Positions 536-9,365 of a stretch of DNA of 9,365 nucleotides are shown one piece after another. Position numbers and translations under genes: made by a program. The stretch covers positions 930-10,294 of the forward strand of contig CAZFVS010000033.1 in assembly GCA_964522265.1 (NCBI GenBank), written 5' to 3'. Numbering within the stretch: the stretch's first letter is position 1; the number at the start of each line of letters is the position of its first letter. The notes below the pieces were generated by a model. The model was not told where the DNA came from and searched no databases. It saw only the letters and a list, made by a program, of their open reading frames with translations. This stretch comes from an uncultured Gammaproteobacteria bacterium (GTDB lineage Bacteria > Patescibacteriota > Microgenomatia > Daviesbacterales > UBA10151).

Positions 536-650
536 TAATGAAGCCCCACGGCTAAAGCCGTGGTATCTTCTCATACTGCGCTTCGCGCAGACTCGCCTTC
601 GGCGAGGAAAAACATTCACCCACGCCTAAAGGCGTGGTGCTCTGTTTAAT
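536..650 (+). repeat. Four-hairpin structured intergenic element, copy A (possible cis-acting RNA or miniature repeat)
   Basis: HP1 CCACGGC-taaa-GCCGTGG (546-563). HP2 CTGCGC-ttc-GCGCAG (576-590). HP3 CTCGCC-ttc-GGCGAG (592-606). HP4 CCACGCC-taaa-GGCGTGG (620-637). It aligns colinearly with the reverse complement of 9100-9220. Confidence 0.7.
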
Positions 651-688: not shown

Positions 689-1132
689 ATGGCAGATGAC
701 GATATAAAAAAAGAGGAGACTGAAAAGAAAACATCAAAGGTTGTTTCAAAAGATCTGGAAAAAATCATCGAGTCTATTGAAAAACTTTCTGTTTTGGAAC
801 TGGCAGACCTAGTCCATGCTTTAGAAGACAGGTTTGGGGTAACAGCCCAAGCGCCAGTTGCAACAACAGGCCCTGCTGCCGCCTCCGCTGGAAGCTCCGG
901 CGAGCCACAGGAAGAACAAACCACTTTTAATGTAATCCTGGCAAGTACAGGTGCAAACAAAATCGGTGTTATTAAAGCTGTAAGAGAGCTGGTCCCAACA
1001 TTGGGCTTAAAAGAAGCAAAAGACCTGGTCGAAGCAGCTCCTAAACCGGTTATGGAAAGTGTCAACAAAGAAACAGCAAATGAGGCCAAAACAAAATTAA
1101 CAGCAGCCGGAGCAACTGTAGAATTACAATGA
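689..1132 (+). CDS. rplL: 50S ribosomal protein L7/L12 (bL12) with an extra ~20-aa charged N-terminal extension
   Basis: [29 protein letters not shown] (N-terminal dimerisation domain), an Ala/Pro/Gly hinge, then [42 protein letters not shown]....[15 protein letters not shown] (C-terminal domain). Stop TGA. Confidence 0.95.
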
Positions 1133-1332
1133 GCCAGAAATGTTTTGATTCCTTTTAAGTCCTGCTACTTGAGCCATATCTTTGATATATTTCTCAAGTT
1201 GTCCCTTAAACTGGACAGGATAATAATAAGTATTCGCGGTAGAGTAGAGAGACATAATATTTCGAGGTTGAATGTAGTCAACTTTATTTATCCCCGCTTG
1301 TTTGTTGGTCAAAAAAGAGTAGAATTCAGACT

Positions 1333-2253
1333 ATGCAGAAAGATAGAAACTGGTTAGAGATTCAGCCTTTTTCAAGGAAAGCTTTTTTGCAAATTACAGG
1401 CTTAGGTGTAGGTTTGCTTTTTTTACCTGAAAAAAGGCAGGATATATTGGCCGGACAGCTTGCAGATTGGGATCAGGAAACTTTAAGCCATCCTGAGAGA
1501 ATTGAGGCAACAGGACTTAAGGTTTCAAATTTGGCCATAGAAAAACTTTGTCAGCGTTTTGAGACCAGCCCGGATAGGTTTAAACATAATGTTTTTCTGC
1601 TTTGGCCTAAGGAATATACAAAAACCCTTCAGGGAACTTCCGGGTGCGTCCGGGAATTCAATAACCCTCTTCAGCTTGGCTCCGCAAGTATTGAGGGCGA
1701 CCAAATATATATCAACTTAAATAATATTTTGTATTCTTCCCCTTTTGGAAAAAACCTGCGGCCCGGACCTGCCAGTACATTATTTGAAGTTGTTTACCAT
1801 GAAGGAGGACATGTTTTACCTAAATTTTTAGATCTTGAAACACCAAGAGAACTAATGGATGCCGGAAACCAGCGGTTATCACTGGTAAAAAAACGCGGGT
1901 TAAGGTCTTACGGGATATACAATAATAACCATGCCGAAGGGAAAGCGTGCTACATCCCCTACCGTTCTGAGGCTGAAGAGGCGTTCGTGCAATTTTTAAC
2001 CATATCCGGCTTCAGGAGGCTGGGTATTTCTATCCCTGAAAATTATGCTTATAAAGACTGGGTTAAAAAATTTGAGCGGGAAATAATTTTACCCTTATTT
2101 GGTTTAAACTATGCAATCCTGGAAAAGCATTTTTTATCCTCCGACCCTGATAATTTCTTCCGGGAAATAGGTATAAGGAAAGGTTACACGGAAGAAGAAG
2201 CAAAATACAAAGGTGAAGCTTTTGTTTTTCAGGTTATCAAACAAGCTAATTGA
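1333..2253 (+). CDS. Putative exported HExxH zinc-metallopeptidase-like protein with a Tat-like (S-R-K-x-F-L-Q) N-terminus
   Basis: N-terminus FSRKAFLQITGLGVGLLFLP resembles the twin-arginine consensus S/T-R-R-x-F-L-K followed by a hydrophobic region. HEGGH at nt 1798-1812 lies in the context LFEVVYHEGGHVL. An acidic cluster EAEEAF about 55 aa downstream could supply a third ligand. I recognise no named family. Confidence 0.55.
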   Translation: MQKDRNWLEIQPFSRKAFLQITGLGVGLLFLPEKRQDILAGQLADWDQETLSHPERIEATGLKVSNLAIEKLCQRFETSPDRFKHNVFLLWPKEYTKTLQGTSGCVREFNNPLQLGSASIEGDQIYINLNNILYSSPFGKNLRPGPASTLFEVVYHEGGHVLPKFLDLETPRELMDAGNQRLSLVKKRGLRSYGIYNNNHAEGKACYIPYRSEAEEAFVQFLTISGFRRLGISIPENYAYKDWVKKFEREIILPLFGLNYAILEKHFLSSDPDNFFREIGIRKGYTEEEAKYKGEAFVFQVIKQAN

Positions 2254-2379
2254 CACAACATAATTTAATGTTTAAGCTGGAATCAGGCTATAAAACCTAT
2301 CTGCATGCTTAAAAGAACATTGAAGTTTTTTTCCTATATTTAGACAAAACCTTTAATTTTAGTCCTTTCATTTGTCAAT

Positions 2380-3453
2380 TTGGGGGTTTTAGTTTTGCTT
2401 GTTTCCGTCCTGTTTCATGGTTACTCAGTTAAAAAAATAGAAAACCAACAGCAGGTTTTAGCTGCCACATCCTGCACCAACTACTCTCCAACCTGCAATG
2501 ATAGAGCTAAAGTTCCTGATCCTAATACCTGGTGCCTTGTTTCAGAGACTGCCTGTACAAAAGGAAAGACTACTAAAACCTACCAGTGTAAAAAGATTAA
2601 AAAGACAAGTAAACAAAACTGTACAGTTGCTCCTCCAGCCCCGGATCCGGGTCATATAGAGGTAACTCTTTCTGACCAAACCTGGCTTTCTGATTCTACC
2701 AACCAGCAAGGAGCGATCCAAAAAGATAAAAATACTTTAGGAGGAAGTTTAAAGATAGCAGGGACAAATTATCCAAAAGGTATCGGTGTCTGGGCAAAGT
2801 CCCATGTTAAATATGATTTTAAAAGTAAATGCTCTTTACTTACAGGAAAAGCAGGTGTAGATGATGCAGCAGGCAGTAAAGGATCAATTAATTTTAAAGT
2901 CCAGGTAGATAATAAAAATGTGCTTTTTTCCTCAGGAGAAATGCATGGAGGCAATGCAGCGAAAGAGTTTACCTTAAATATTAGAAATATAAATGTTTTA
3001 GACTTTTATGCAGATTCAGGGCAATACACTGCATTGGATTATGGCAACTGGGTAGAATTAAAAGCCTGGTGCGACCCAACAGTATTCTCATCTCCATCAG
3101 GAGGAGGTTCAGAGGAGATCATGAAGGAGGAATCTTATCGAGTAATACTGGAATATGATCCAGTAAATAAAACGGTTGAACAAATCAAAACTAAGAAAAC
3201 ACATACTGATCTAGTAAGTATAGATAAAAAACAAAAACCAACTAAAAAAACAAACTTTTTTCAATACAAGGTTAAGGTTGTTGATTCCGAAAATTTACTG
3301 ATTTCAGATGGATGGAAGACTGTTCCTGTTAAATCAATACGGAGAAAGAATGATAAGTATAGGATTCAATTTCTAACAGATTATAAAAAAGACGCCAAGA
3401 TTACTGTTTTTAGTGAAACAGATGAAATTATCTGGGAAGGAAAGATGCTCTAA
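2380..3453 (+). CDS. Exported or anchored protein with a 6-Cys spacer, an NPCBM-type carbohydrate-binding module and a Lys-rich C-terminal beta domain
   Basis: aa ~94-231 (nt ~2659-3072): LSDQTWLS...LKIAGTNYPKGIGVWAKSHVKYDF..C..LTGKAGVDDAAGSKGSINFKVQVDNKNVLFSSGEM....AKEF.L.....VLDFYADSG....DYGNWVELKAWC. This matches the NPCBM/NEW2 pattern (LSD..W......L.IgG..Y.KGlG.ha.S...Y.l...C..F....GvDD.....GS..F.V..Dg.....SG) as I remember it. The TTG start is uncertain (see the finding on 2305-2382). Confidence 0.75.
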   Translation: MGVLVLLVSVLFHGYSVKKIENQQQVLAATSCTNYSPTCNDRAKVPDPNTWCLVSETACTKGKTTKTYQCKKIKKTSKQNCTVAPPAPDPGHIEVTLSDQTWLSDSTNQQGAIQKDKNTLGGSLKIAGTNYPKGIGVWAKSHVKYDFKSKCSLLTGKAGVDDAAGSKGSINFKVQVDNKNVLFSSGEMHGGNAAKEFTLNIRNINVLDFYADSGQYTALDYGNWVELKAWCDPTVFSSPSGGGSEEIMKEESYRVILEYDPVNKTVEQIKTKKTHTDLVSIDKKQKPTKKTNFFQYKVKVVDSENLLISDGWKTVPVKSIRRKNDKYRIQFLTDYKKDAKITVFSETDEIIWEGKML

Positions 3454-3457
3454 AAAT

Positions 3458-4936
3458 ATGCAAAGGATCAGGATTGTTATCTATTTATTTTGTTTTGTAC
3501 TTATTGGTAGTTTTCTACCAAGTATAGTAAGTGGGCAGAGCGGGCAAGAATATAAAGTGATACCGGTTTTCTTACTTGCAAATGACTATCAAGAAGTTAC
3601 TGGGATTGACTTTGATACAGAAAGTCCTAATTATTTTCGTTGGATTCAAATTGCACTTGATGAAATAAATAATTTTTACAGTACACAGACTAAAACGAAG
3701 TATAATCCAAACGGCCTTAAGTTTAATTATGATAAAACACCAAGAGTTATTAACATTCCAAATGTATCTCAAGAGGATTTAGAAGATATGGATAATATAA
3801 TCAAATTGATTAAGTCAGGGGGGATAAAAATTGATCGTTCTGGAGACTTGAAGGATGGCAAAACTATTTTTTTAATAATCCCATTCGGATCTTCAGCCAC
3901 TGATACTGCGGGAGTTAATTTTTGGTATCCCTACAAAGGCAGTAAAGACGCTTATATCTACTCAATAATTGACAGTACATTTCTTTTTGACCTTGATCCA
4001 ATAAACGCATCAGAAGACGCACAGGCATACGGACGATCTTTGACAGTAATCGGTCATGAACTAGGTCATGCATTTGGATTAATACGAGAAAGGTCGGCAA
4101 ACGGACATACCTGTTCTCAACATCGTCCAGAAATAGATTGTATTTCAGGTGCTCCCATACCTCTTCCTTCTTTTGAAGAAGGAGAAAGTGATCTAATGTT
4201 CTGGGCATTAACTAGTAAGGGCTCAATTTTTAATAAAAAACTACATAATACCTTTCATAATCCAGAGGTTCTTGTTGTCTATAGATCTCCCTTTTTGAAT
4301 CCAGATATAAAGATGGCTGGGCCAGATCTAGAACCTTTGCTTGCCCAGAGCCAATTTCCCTTGGTTGCCAACCGTAGAATTGTCTCTTTAGGAGAAGAAT
4401 TCTCTCTTACAACAGGATTTGGAACCTCAAGGTTACCTTTGTCACCTCAACCAGTAGAAATTTACACTATATATAATAATGAAGTTTTTTCTACAGAGTC
4501 ACTTGTTGACCCTTCTTCGTATTCTGTTTCATGGCAGCCCTCAATTGCAAGTGGCGTAGTGATAAAGGTTGAGAAAGTGGAGGATACTGATGAAAAATGG
4601 TTTATCAGATTTCGTGATCCAGTAAAAAATATTGGATATTTTACTGAATCAAATAACTATATTCTTGTCAAAGGAGGCAAGTCCCAAAAATATTTTGTGA
4701 CAAGCAGGTTTAATGCCACATGTGGGGATGAAAACTTACCTGTTACTGGCTCAAGAGTAACTGTTAACTACAACAAATCACTAGGTGAGAGTCGAGAAAT
4801 TCTATCCAGTTACTTAGACAAAGGCTCAACGACAATGAGTTTTTCACCTAGTAATTACGCTGCTAAACGTTTTTACTTTATAATTGGGGATTTGAAGGAT
4901 GGATCAAATTCTATTAATCCAGACATAAGATCATAA
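3458..4936 (+). CDS. Secreted zinc metalloprotease (HExxHxxG, metzincin-like) with C-terminal beta-rich domains
   Basis: The preferred start is ATG 3458, 4 nt after the upstream stop. It gives a classic signal peptide, MQRIRIVIYLFCFVLIGSFLPSIVSG/QSG. The ORF-track start at 3413 adds 15 non-signal residues and overlaps the upstream gene. Active-site motif VIGHELGHAFGL at nt ~4046-4081 (HELGH = 4055-4069). A possible Met-turn, SDLMFW, lies downstream. Confidence 0.75.
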   Translation: MQRIRIVIYLFCFVLIGSFLPSIVSGQSGQEYKVIPVFLLANDYQEVTGIDFDTESPNYFRWIQIALDEINNFYSTQTKTKYNPNGLKFNYDKTPRVINIPNVSQEDLEDMDNIIKLIKSGGIKIDRSGDLKDGKTIFLIIPFGSSATDTAGVNFWYPYKGSKDAYIYSIIDSTFLFDLDPINASEDAQAYGRSLTVIGHELGHAFGLIRERSANGHTCSQHRPEIDCISGAPIPLPSFEEGESDLMFWALTSKGSIFNKKLHNTFHNPEVLVVYRSPFLNPDIKMAGPDLEPLLAQSQFPLVANRRIVSLGEEFSLTTGFGTSRLPLSPQPVEIYTIYNNEVFSTESLVDPSSYSVSWQPSIASGVVIKVEKVEDTDEKWFIRFRDPVKNIGYFTESNNYILVKGGKSQKYFVTSRFNATCGDENLPVTGSRVTVNYNKSLGESREILSSYLDKGSTTMSFSPSNYAAKRFYFIIGDLKDGSNSINPDIRS

Positions 4937-5089
4937 GATTATCCGTTAGATATTTTTACTCTTAATAGCGACAAAGATTTAACCTTTAATATACATTATC
5001 CTGGTTGTCCGGCTGACTACATAACTTCTAAACAAATTCAATCAATTACAATAAACGGTAAGACTTTAATAAGCGCTGATACAGGTGGA

Positions 5090-5764
5090 ATGGCTCTTAA
5101 TTTGAAGGATTTTGGAGGAGTTGAGGGGCAGGCAAGACTCATAGCTGTTCCCGTTACGTTTACTTATACAGACGGCTCATCTGAACAGAAAACCATACGG
5201 TTTAATTACAATGGAGGGGGAGGTTCGGGTGGAGATGGTGGAAACTGTACTAATAGTGAGTGGAGAGATACAAATGAGTTTACTTGTACTGGTTGCGGGC
5301 AGAAGAAAACTAAACAAAGAAAATATTGTGACGGTGTAGCCACAAACGAAACCAGGCTTAAATCTTTTGAAGAAAGAGAATCAGATTGCAACACCAGGCA
5401 ATATTGCACAAGCCCCTGTAACCGGGGTACACCTTACCAGTTTTTCGATGGTAATAAATATGGTTGTCGTGATGGCGGAGCAGAGACATGTTCAAGTGGA
5501 TATTATGATATGAATAATCAATGTACGATAGATGCTGATTGCAAAAAGCTCTTTTGTAACTGTGATTATGAGGAAAATTCGGAAAATACTGAGAATTGTG
5601 AAGGAGAAAAAGTCAGGGTAAGGGTCTGTAAAGGCGGAGACCCAAGGCATGACAGGGAAAGCGGAGATGAAGGTACTAATGATAATACCAGCTCGGGCTG
5701 TGGGTTCAGGCAGGAACGTCCACCTGAGTGTAACTTAACAGACAGGTGTAATACACCGGAGTAA
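5090..5764 (+). CDS. Cys-rich (18 Cys) domain protein lacking its own signal peptide; possibly the detached C-terminus of the upstream protease
   Basis: The frame is open from 4937, in phase with 3458-4936, and is separated from it only by TAA 4934-4936. The first canonical start is ATG 5090. A GGGGSGGDGG linker is followed by 18 Cys in ~170 aa. Confidence 0.5.
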   Translation: MALNLKDFGGVEGQARLIAVPVTFTYTDGSSEQKTIRFNYNGGGGSGGDGGNCTNSEWRDTNEFTCTGCGQKKTKQRKYCDGVATNETRLKSFEERESDCNTRQYCTSPCNRGTPYQFFDGNKYGCRDGGAETCSSGYYDMNNQCTIDADCKKLFCNCDYEENSENTENCEGEKVRVRVCKGGDPRHDRESGDEGTNDNTSSGCGFRQERPPECNLTDRCNTPE

Positions 5765-5809
5765 CTCTGGTGTTTAATATGGTTAAATATATATAATACA
5801 AAAGTACAG

Positions 5810-6070
5810 ATGAGTCAGCAATATTTTAAAGAGTGGTTAAAGAGTAACTGGATATCGAGTCTTTCAATGGTAATCCTGTTAGCAGGATTGGTAACTGGAG
5901 TTTATTTAGTCCAACAAGAACAGTCTATAAGATCTAAAGCCGCAGACGAGGGGATAAACTCAGTTTTAGAGGTAACCAAATCTGATGGTGACAACTTAGA
6001 TTATATAGGATCTGATACATATAACACCGACACTTTGGATATAAAGATTAAGATTAAAACCCAGCAGTAA
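5810..6070 (+). CDS. Small N-terminally membrane-anchored protein (86 aa)
   Basis: A single hydrophobic helix, ISSLSMVILLAGLVTGVYLV, is followed by QQEQSIRSKAADEG and a short acidic/Thr-rich tail. I recognise no domain. Confidence 0.45.
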   Translation: MSQQYFKEWLKSNWISSLSMVILLAGLVTGVYLVQQEQSIRSKAADEGINSVLEVTKSDGDNLDYIGSDTYNTDTLDIKIKIKTQQ

Positions 6071-6086
6071 AATTATCGTAACTATT

Positions 6087-6192
6087 CACGGTTCTAACAT
6101 AAAATTGTCATCGCGAGTGCCAAGTCTGACTTGGCCGTGGTGATCTAATTAGATTGCTTCGCTATGCTCGCAATGACGAAGTTTTGTCAAAT
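6087..6192 (+). repeat. Composite palindromic intergenic element (copy B; a possible diverged relative of the 536-650 element)
   Basis: Outer stem GTCATCGCGAG (6107-6117) / CTCGCAATGAC (6167-6177), 10 of 11 bp. Inner hairpin GCCAAGT-ctg-ACTTGGC (6119-6135). A 12-nt palindrome ATCTAATTAGAT (6143-6154). It shares GCCGTGGT(G)ATCT and GCTTCGC-N4/5-CTCGC with copy A at matching spacing. Confidence 0.5.
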
Positions 6193-6216
6193 CCTGAACG
6201 GTTACAAAGACCGGTC

Positions 6217-6248
6217 TTGACACTAACTAAAACTATATGTTATATAAT
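6217..6248 (+). promoter_or_regulatory. Candidate sigma70-type promoter for the HTH gene
   Basis: Perfect -35 TTGACA (6217-6222), an 18-nt spacer ending in TGt (6238-6240, extended -10), then TATATA (6241-6246), which overlaps TATAAT (6243-6248). It lies ~50 nt upstream of ATG 6298. The context is AT-rich, so a chance match is possible. Confidence 0.35.
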
Positions 6249-6297
6249 ATATTATCTTGCAATCTTTAATATCTAAAATAGATAATTTAATATCCTT

Positions 6298-6531
6298 ATG
6301 AGTAATAAAATATCTTTAGAGAATCTTCCTGATTTACTAACAGTCAAAGAAGTGGCTGAAGTTTTAAGAGTTTCTCCGTTAACTATTAAAAGATGGGGCA
6401 AACGGGGGAAATTGCCGGCAATCAGGATTAACTCACGCGGAGATCGGCGTTATAAAAAAGAAGCTGTCCTTTGGCTTTTGGGCATAACCCAAAAAACATC
6501 AGTTGAATCCCCCTCGTCAAACACATATTAA
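6298..6531 (+). CDS. Excisionase-family / MerR-like helix-turn-helix DNA-binding protein (HTH_17 type)
   Basis: LLTVKEVAEVLRVSPLTIKRWGKRGKLPAIRINSRGDRRYKKEAVLWLL matches the excisionase-family DNA-binding domain pattern (LT..EaA..LgVS..Ti.R....G.lPa.ri.....r......v..wl). 77 aa, stand-alone. Confidence 0.8.
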   Translation: MSNKISLENLPDLLTVKEVAEVLRVSPLTIKRWGKRGKLPAIRINSRGDRRYKKEAVLWLLGITQKTSVESPSSNTY

Positions 6532-6602
6532 GTTCATTCTGGCACTCTGGTAAGTATATTTGCCAACTGATATGGATTAGGTTGTTGCAAAGCCACAAAG
6601 GT

Positions 6603-9061: not shown

Positions 9062-9083
9062 TATAAGTCAAATTTGACTTATA
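9062..9083. promoter_or_regulatory. Perfect 22-bp palindrome, a candidate operator, 9-30 nt upstream of the GT4 start codon
   Basis: TATAAGTCAAA|TTTGACTTATA is its own reverse complement with no mismatch. It lies between repeat copy C and ATG 9053 (- strand). Confidence 0.4.
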
Positions 9084-9099
9084 AGACAAACATTTTATT

Positions 9100-9220
9100 G
9101 TTCAAACCCAACACCACAACCGTTGAGGTTGTGGATGAAGTTTTTACGAGCGAAGCGAGTACTCCGCGAAACGGAGCAACAAGAAGATACCACGGGCGTA
9201 AGCCCGTGGAAGATTCATTA
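9100..9220 (-). repeat. Four-hairpin structured intergenic element, copy C (inverted relative to copy A)
   Basis: Read on the - strand: TAATGAA, HP1 CCACGGGC-ttac-GCCCGTGG (9209-9190), TATCTTCT, HP2 CTCCG-tttcg-CGGAG (9176-9162), a degenerate HP3 ACTCGCTTCGCTCGT, HP4 CCACAACC-tcaac-GGTTGTGG (9134-9114), then TGTTGGGTTTGAA. Confidence 0.7.
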
Positions 9221-9365
9221 CTCCTTAAACCACTCTATTGTTCTTCTCAACCCTTCTTCCAGACTAACCTTAGCTTCCCAACCGGTGGCTTTTTTGAGTT
9301 TATCGCTTGAGGCAAAATTTGCGGGGATATCGCCTGCCCGCTCACCCAGATCCTGGACTTCCAGC
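9218..9365 (-). CDS. NAD-dependent epimerase/dehydratase family protein, C-terminal 48 aa only (5' end outside the window)
   Basis: The - strand frame reads LEVQDLGERAGDIPANFASSDKLKKATGWEAKVSLEEGLRRTIEWFKE*. This matches the conserved C-terminal pattern R.GD......d..K....lGW.....leeGl..t..W of GalE/RfbB-like SDR sugar epimerases/dehydratases. It is absent from the ORF track because it has no start in the window. Confidence 0.8.
   Translation of the reverse strand, partial: LEVQDLGERAGDIPANFASSDKLKKATGWEAKVSLEEGLRRTIEWFKE

Follow-up and report, generated by a model that had tools for sequence, protein, structure and literature searches.

The insertion sequence (IS) IS200 of Salmonella and the Enterobacteriaceae is 707 bp long, encodes tnpA only and has been described as the smallest fully autonomous IS; the hairpin at nucleotides 12-34 of its left end is a bidirectional terminator (PMC4513863). 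Protein-less derivatives of the IS200/IS605 family, the palindrome-associated transposable elements (PATEs), are known from Haloquadratum, Halanaerobium and Geobacillus stearothermophilus (PMC7290912, PMC10055086). Another group of small intergenic palindromes, the repetitive extragenic palindromic sequences and bacterial interspersed mosaic elements (REP/BIME) that go with a REP-associated tyrosine transposase (RAYT, or TnpA-REP), can affect mRNA (PMC8266576). We report here on a hairpin-rich block lying between the ribosomal protein genes rplJ and rplL, and again near the far end, of a 9,365-nt stretch of metagenomic DNA (contig CAZFVS010000033.1, positions 930 to 10,294; the whole stretch is called the window below). 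We conclude that it is very probably an internally deleted, transposase-less miniature of an IS200/IS605 element, that is, a PATE resembling MITEs (miniature transposable elements with inverted repeats), present in two copies, A and B.

As described for PATEs, the window element is short, has no open reading frame (ORF), consists only of two hairpin-bearing ends, is multi-copy and is presumed to be mobilised in trans (PMC7290912, PMC10055086). It differs from them in its apparent origin from a tnpA-only (IS200-type) parent, hence the lack of a TnpB/IscB guide-RNA (omega RNA) scaffold, in its host, which is a Candidate Phyla Radiation (CPR) bacterium, and in that its cognate tnpA was not found in the sampled DNA of the host lineage. 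Like IS200, the parent encodes a single Y1 transposase, scoring above the NCBIfam transpos_IS200 cut-off, and has a hairpin about 20-40 nt from its tnpA-proximal tip; it is however shorter (about 536-539 bp), its end sequences are different, and the window holds the miniature form only. With IS608 and ISDra2 it has in common similar subterminal hairpins at both ends, the lack of inverted terminal repeats and of target duplication, and insertion beside a fixed 4-5-nt motif, a similar one being found at the element's opposite end. The motif is ATAGA, ATGGA or ATGAA here, instead of TTAC or TTGAT, and there is no tnpB. REP/BIME palindromes are also related to IS200/IS605 ends and often lie just after genes (PMC8266576), but the window element has no GTAG head, as the original prediction for this DNA had pointed out, and is made of two direct hairpins with a defined core; in addition, the RAYT-like gene of Candidatus Daviesbacteria has other flanking hairpins of its own.

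Inside a ribosomal-protein operon, a structured and covarying block might pass for a new regulatory RNA, when in this case it is most probably mobile DNA. What is new is a further PATE of an IS200-type IS, the kind of element being already known (PMC7290912, PMC10055086). It documents an IS200/IS605 miniature family in CPR genomes. The repeat is of an ordinary kind, but its host, whose genome is Candidatus Daviesbacteria-like, is unusual.

Copy A and its tnpA-bearing relatives

The rplJ-rplL spacer measures 161 nt, from the rplJ stop codon (525-527) to the rplL ATG (689), and the four hairpins first predicted there, HP1 to HP4, are all present. The features of this region, all on the forward strand, are the following.

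1-527, +: rplJ (ribosomal protein L10), its 5' part cut off at the window edge; Pfam PF00466, E = 2.5e-14; frame open back to base 3, stop TAA at 525-527
538-542, +: ATGAA box at the HP1 end of copy A; a target motif outside the element, or the last 5 nt of the element if the other strand is active
543-658, +: copy A, probable non-autonomous IS200/IS605-derived element of 116 nt; both ends homologous to ends of elements that carry tnpA; not present in the orthologous spacer of contig L101
546-563, +: HP1, subterminal hairpin CCACGGC-TAAA-GCCGTGG; tnpA-distal end, equivalent to the canonical right end relative to tnpA
564-571, +: conserved tract TATCTTCT 3' of HP1, invariant in six copies; terminator-like tail
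576-590, +: HP2, internal hairpin CTGCGC-TTC-GCGCAG, from fold prediction; three compensated variants among copies
592-606, +: HP3, internal hairpin CTCGCC-TTC-GGCGAG, from fold prediction; variable core, where the internal deletion would lie
610-647, +: HP4-end module; tnpA-proximal end, equivalent to the canonical left end
610-614 with 643-647, +: outer helix of HP4, AAACA/TGTTT; covarying, with cognate helices in other copies
615-619 and 638-642, +: conserved internal loop TTCAC/TGCTC between the outer helix and HP4
620-637, +: HP4, hairpin CCACGCC-TAAA-GGCGTGG, inside the HP4-end module
654-658, +: ATAGA terminal motif of copy A; flanks diverge right after it
689-1132, +: rplL (ribosomal protein L7/L12); Pfam PF16320 and PF00542; protein 100% identical to P0001

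The register of copy A is 543-658, or 538-653 should the active strand be the complementary one. Only spurious ORFs overlap its 116 nt, which hold neither a transposase gene nor any other coding capacity, and its G+C content is 53%, versus 39% in the window. The RNA fold predicted for the spacer reaches -60.6 kcal/mol, compared to -32.3 +/- 3.8 in shuffled sequences (z = -7.4), and DNA folds gave z values of about -7 on both strands. HP1 and HP4 of both copies fit a simple terminator pattern with weak tails (TATCTTCT and TGCTCTGTTT); a weak-terminator look had been noticed originally. A Rfam scan of the whole window (E <= 1) gave BSnc120 as its only match, on the opposite strand, which was rejected as noise (23.9 bits versus a gathering score of 114), in agreement with the earlier failure to recognise any Rfam family. 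Identities as an integron attC site, a CRISPR repeat or a tRNA-like structure were dropped on anatomy alone.

The same ends were found beside a transposase gene, an association that had been named beforehand as one that would reduce the block to an ordinary repeat. Metagenome contigs were scanned with the HP4 motif, three stem positions per arm being left free, and 91 loci were obtained. Many of the matches sit at contig ends, as expected since repeats break assemblies. In 24 of the 91 loci a full-length tnpA adjoins the motif on the opposite strand, the end matching CATTCACCCACNNNTAAANNNGTGGTRCTCT, and in the full-length elements inspected a distance of about 35 nt separates the HP4 module from the start codon of tnpA. 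The TnpA product, 142 aa long, matches Pfam Y1_Tnp (PF01797, E = 1.6e-31) and NCBIfam transpos_IS200 (NF033573, 124 bits versus a cut-off of 55), and its closest solved structures are IS200/IS605 transposases, including ISHp608 TnpA. Beyond the tnpA stop codon stands an HP1-like hairpin preceded by ATAGA. Since tnpA is carried by the strand complementary to the one on which we note the hairpins, HP4 is the canonical left-end hairpin and HP1 the canonical right-end one. At the HP1 end, a 21-nt stretch of copy A (CCCACGGCTAAAGCCGTGGTA) is identical to the matching end of the full-length IS in L063 and L081. Compared in this way, both ends of the window element are homologous to the hairpin-bearing ends of a Y1 (HUH) TnpA element, which is why we describe it as two IS ends separated by a short core.

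The HP1-like and HP4-like hairpins are separated by bimodally distributed distances, 485-517 nt when tnpA is present and 64-101 nt when it is not, two deletion intermediates at 101 and 145 nt being set apart. Further deletion intermediates with tnpA fragments and various flanks occur in one metagenome (L019, L059, L064, L070, L075, L091 and L100). Full-length relatives with tnpA lie at L063:75-613 and L115:2927-3462, and the complete IS measures 539 bp in L063 and about 536 bp in a 458-kb contig of a Verrucomicrobiia metagenome-assembled genome (MAG). All the parent elements examined, of about 536-539 bp, have tnpA only, without TnpB/IscB, and Francisella and Alteromonas plasmids carry annotated IS200/IS605 relatives with the same ends. 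These ends, common to tnpA-only ISs of ~539 bp from metagenomes, a Verrucomicrobiia MAG and Francisella and Alteromonas plasmids, offer a handle on gene flow into reduced genomes. Most TnpA homologues were on contigs of 0.5-2 kb, typical of collapsed repeats. No hit was obtained when viral contigs were scanned for the HP4 motif.

A different Y1 gene could also be considered. The element would then be a REP/BIME-type (REPIN-type) repeat moved by the single-copy RAYT-like gene of Daviesbacteria, and a conserved 215-aa Y1-transposase-like gene does lie ~9 kb from rplJ in the syntenic relative, its product matching NCBIfam REP_Tyr_transpos (E = 2e-11, below the cut-off). This gene is flanked on both sides, in three lineages, by another hairpin, (T)CACACCTCNGAGGTGTG(A), and not by CCACGG...CCGTGG. 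The window element, besides having no GTAG head, has direct rather than inverted hairpins, and its ends match the element with the classical 142-aa IS200 TnpA. We therefore hardly believe in such an origin.

RAYT-like genes of 215-232 aa are widespread in Daviesbacteria and Microgenomates (L103:9960-10700, L104:9960-10690, L109:9960-11710). The hairpin of their own that flanks them reads either (T)CACACCTCNGAGGTGTG(A) or CGCACCTCCGATGTGCG, and L109 has it a third time ~1 kb downstream. The organisation is reminiscent of a REPtron, here in a CPR genome, and is separate from the rplJ-rplL element.

Dispersal and empty sites

A strict search motif, composed of the HP1 3' arm and the conserved tail through the 5' half of HP2, detected four more copies, all in Daviesbacteria MAGs, its hits being at four different, unrelated loci; among species-representative genomes, family matches were found only in Daviesbacteria MAGs. 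The Daviesbacteria copies lie after PheT-like (phenylalanyl-tRNA synthetase beta-subunit-like), LysM-like and Fic-like genes. Profile searches revealed further copies in L003, where they define a third subtype, in L101 and in CPR-like metagenome contigs. Daviesbacteria DNA sampled irrespective of the element contained only one copy.

Contig L101, from MAG JACPKP01, is syntenic with the window (rplJ, rplL, MerR, GPI, WecG, GT4, epimerase), and the L7/L12 protein of the window is 93% identical to that of the Daviesbacteria MAG relative. At the rplJ-rplL junction of L101, the stop abuts the ATG (TAAATG) and the element is absent; it is also absent from the epimerase-GT4 spacer, which is 28 nt long. 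A close relative thus has neither window site occupied. In L102, a relative at 80% identity, the rplJ-rplL spacer is unrelated and measures 105 nt. The L101 copy itself lies immediately upstream of rplJ, in antisense orientation. Copy B and a copy at a non-orthologous site of JACPKP01 are 96% identical (120/125), whereas the orthologous GT4 genes are only 75% identical at the DNA level, and we conclude that the element moved or was transferred recently. Insertions are tolerated between rplJ and rplL.

These comparisons bear on an RNA role of the kind first proposed for the block. In this reading, an RNA would act in cis in the rplJ-rplL operon as a stabiliser, processing site or attenuator and set the L10:L12 ratio, copy B acting likewise in a sugar-metabolism operon. 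The very stable fold on the transcribed strand, the terminator-like HP1 and HP4, the co-orientation of both window copies with their flanking genes and the compensated stems, internal HP2 included, all speak for it. Such a role is nevertheless difficult to reconcile with an empty junction in a relative whose L12 is 93% identical, an unrelated spacer at 80% identity, and an epimerase-GT4 site that is empty as well. Copies also occur antisense beside rplJ and inside argS, in other phyla these ends border a transposase gene, and no Rfam match came near its gathering score. We consider the operon RNA very unlikely, and abandon the stabiliser, processing and attenuator roles in favour of the third one offered at the outset, a structured MITE-like repeat, which the IS200/IS605 ends and the dispersal support.

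The argS gene of L101 (17137-19089, - strand) encloses a diverged member of the family at 17402-17535 (+ strand) and its ORF is unbroken. This member consists of ATGAA, a hairpin CCCTGCTGC...GCAGCAGGG, then GAAGCA-TTCAT-CCTCGAATCAAGATTCGAGG-TATTT-TGCTTC. Compared to solved ArgRS structures, the L101 enzyme is longer by about 47-56 residues, which sit between the first DALR helix and the rest of the domain, and the insertion is probably tolerated in frame. The situation can be likened to that of the Rickettsia palindromic elements (RPE), whose sequence family and presumed transposition chemistry are unrelated to those of the window element.

In two copies, at L003:4830-4875 (- strand) and L026:950-1000 (+ strand), ATACACC, an extra hairpin and CAA take the place of the HP1 loop, the extra hairpin being either TTCCGAC-TTCG-GTCGGAA or CAATTTGAC-TTT-GTCAAATTG. 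Either an insertion is nested there, or the end hairpin exists in an extended variant.

Copy B, compensated stems and end motifs

Copy B lies on the reverse strand, at about 9094-9218, where a colinear second copy had been announced on the reverse complement of 9100-9220; 94 of 130 aligned columns match between copies A and B. The fold of its spacer is again strong compared to shuffles (z = -6.1). Its features are the following.

9094-9213, -: copy B, subtype B, about 120 nt; 3' end approximate; colinear with copy A
9209-9190, ~9177-9161 and 9134-9114, -: HP1, HP2 and HP4 of copy B, respectively, from fold and alignment
9143-9140 with 9107-9104, -: outer helix AAAC/GTTT, pairing around HP4
9214-9218, -: ATGAA box of copy B; the upstream stop TAA (9220-9218) ends in the first A of the box
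9218-9365, -: 3' end of an NAD-dependent epimerase/dehydratase-like gene (...RRTIEWFKE*), from translation; the syntenic L101 gene matches PF01370
7926-9053, -: GT4 glycosyltransferase gene downstream of copy B; Pfam PF00534, E = 2.9e-36

The two copies have in common an exact 14-mer, CCGTGGTATCTTCT. Relative to copy A, the stems of copy B are compensated in HP1 (CCACGGGC/GCCCGTGG) and in HP4 (CCACAACC/GGTTGTGG), and the HP2 stem goes from CTGCG/CGCAG to CTCCG/CGGAG. With a third HP2 variant, CTTCG/CGAAG, present in the copies of another genome, the same pair is found as G-C, C-G and T-A. The paired changes initially described in HP1, HP2 and HP4 are thus real. HP3 does not belong with them: at its position copy B reads ACTCGCTTCGCTCGT, with no conserved hairpin, and the JACQIX copies have a longer CCGCC...GGCGG stem instead.

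Covariation holds across the family. Among 81 non-redundant HP4 stems, 68 are perfectly complementary at the three free positions, in five Watson-Crick combinations. A MAFFT alignment was left unused for pair counts, as subtype B is misplaced in it at HP1 and HP4. In a gap-free 40-column alignment of seven HP4 modules, the paired cells amount to 96.7% and 7 of the 13 pairs are changed on both sides, compared to 24-44% of cells pairing in slid controls. With 60 distinct HP4-module sequences the values were 96.6% paired and 9 of 13 changed on both sides, on an alignment that was fitted to the structure and hence is favourable to it. The outer helix also varies in a paired manner (AAACA/TGTTT, GTTCAA/TTGAAC, GATCCA/TGGATC, AAAAGCA/TGCTTTT and AAAGCAA/TTGCTTT). 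Selection on secondary structure, as suggested from the start, is therefore supported by the covariation, but the simplest reason for it is that the hairpins serve a transposase as single-stranded DNA, rather than any RNA function. In practice, the covariance model and the end motifs could serve to mask this family when structured RNAs are searched for.

The ends are marked by short motifs. ATGAA stands 2-4 nt before HP1 in 11 of the 11 CPR-type copies that retain the HP1 end; at this place the estuarine-sediment (SMTZ) copies have ATGGA, and the full-length elements ATAGA, GTAGA or ATGGA. On the other side, 59 of 80 non-redundant ends have ATAGA 3' of the HP4 module, at a distance of 14-25 nt, and beyond this motif the flanks diverge. 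HP1 and HP4 are both subterminal and in direct orientation, with the TAAA loop on the same strand. Neither terminal inverted repeats nor a target duplication were seen, the flanks of 12 copies having only ATGAA and ATAGA in common. The ATGAA motif overlaps stop codons, as TAA-TGA-A at copy B and with a TGA stop in L003, and in L005 the upstream ORF reads through ATGAA to a TAA in the HP1 loop. This overlap, together with selection against insertions inside genes, explains why copies are often found directly after genes.

Two pairings of the TTCAC segment were examined and rejected. A closing helix that would pair the 5' TGAA(T) with the (A)TTCA preceding HP4 does not covary, since full-length and SMTZ copies keep TTCAC with ATAGA or ATGGA. 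For the same lack of covariation with the motif, TTCAC was ruled out as an IS608-style guide for the flanking motif; no guide-to-cleavage-site pairing of the IS608/ISDra2 type was identified here, the TTCA/TGAA complementarity being insensitive to changes of the flanking motif.

Between copy B and the GT4 start codon, at 9062-9083, the window has a perfect 22-nt palindrome, TATAAGTCAAATTTGACTTATA, which is absent from the corresponding place in L101.

Proposed mobilisation, transcript effects and neighbouring sequence

The model that we favour starts from a parent IS of ~539 bp, encoding a 142-aa Y1 (HUH) TnpA alone and devoid of terminal inverted repeats, with one hairpin near each end (CCCACGGN-TAAA-NCCGTGG) and the ATAGA pentanucleotide on both sides. 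Deletion of tnpA would have joined the two ends through a short variable core. HP1 would represent one end, HP4 with its outer helix and its TTCAC/TRCTC loop the other, and HP2 and HP3 the core. By analogy with IS608 and ISDra2, the hairpins would form on single-stranded DNA, where a TnpA dimer provided in trans would bind them and cut beside the ATGAA and ATAGA motifs; the excised strand would then reinsert beside the same short motif elsewhere, without target duplication. Under this model, HP1 and HP4 would resemble each other and have their TAAA loop on the same strand because TnpA binds both, and stem substitutions would be compensated because the hairpins are needed on single-stranded DNA.

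Several observations fit less well with this model. The distinct Daviesbacteria sequence read, about 160 kb, yielded no IS200-type tnpA with matching ends. The comparison of filled and empty sites is compatible with both boundary registers (the stop being restored as TAA/TGA or TAA/TAG), and the motif is far from HP4 and close to HP1, an arrangement that resembles IS608 read on the complementary strand. HP2, although internal, is also compensated, when nothing suggests that TnpA binds it; an additional constraint on HP2, at the DNA or RNA level, is possible. Finally, 6 of the 8 intergenic copies inspected follow a co-oriented gene, which could hint at selection at the transcript level, in a small sample (binomial p about 0.14).

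Some of these points would fit an insertion that arrived as mobile DNA and was later co-opted in the manner of the REP/BIME elements of enterobacteria, a very small genome keeping it for its hairpins, which would punctuate transcripts as a partial terminator or exonuclease barrier. The element is terminator-like, and the left-end hairpin of IS200, equivalent in position to HP4, is a bidirectional terminator (PMC4513863); the missing cognate tnpA in the sampled Daviesbacteria DNA, the compensated changes that keep internal HP2, and the usual location directly after stop codons go in the same direction. However, the location follows from the ATGAA/TAATGAA insertion motif itself, an identity of 96% at non-orthologous sites versus 75% for host genes indicates recent movement and not long retention, and a single copy was present in Daviesbacteria DNA chosen irrespective of the element. 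Co-option as a general account is, in our opinion, improbable. Slightly less so, though still doubtful, is the idea that miniatures persist in tiny Daviesbacteria genomes without a matching transposase of their own, either because they have been co-opted as transcript punctuation, uncoupling rplL from rplJ, or, more speculatively, because an externally supplied transposase moves them. For the transposase-less miniature that we favour, an effect on the rplJ-rplL mRNA, by partial termination or 3'-end protection, is plausible, given that the IS200 left-end hairpin terminates transcription in both directions, and would be a by-product.

Some features of the neighbouring sequence were recorded in passing. 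The N-terminus of L7/L12 is variable: the window protein has 147 aa (window 689-760 compared to L101:10001-10140), and many homologues from Daviesbacteria, called at 170-224 aa, have an extension that is charged and of low complexity. Downstream of rplL there is no rpoB; the region 1133-6600 encodes hypothetical, probably secreted, proteins, with a 357-aa NPCBM-domain protein and a cysteine-rich protein of 224 aa among its products. Near 6550-6600, the genes change orientation and the cumulative GC skew switches slope.

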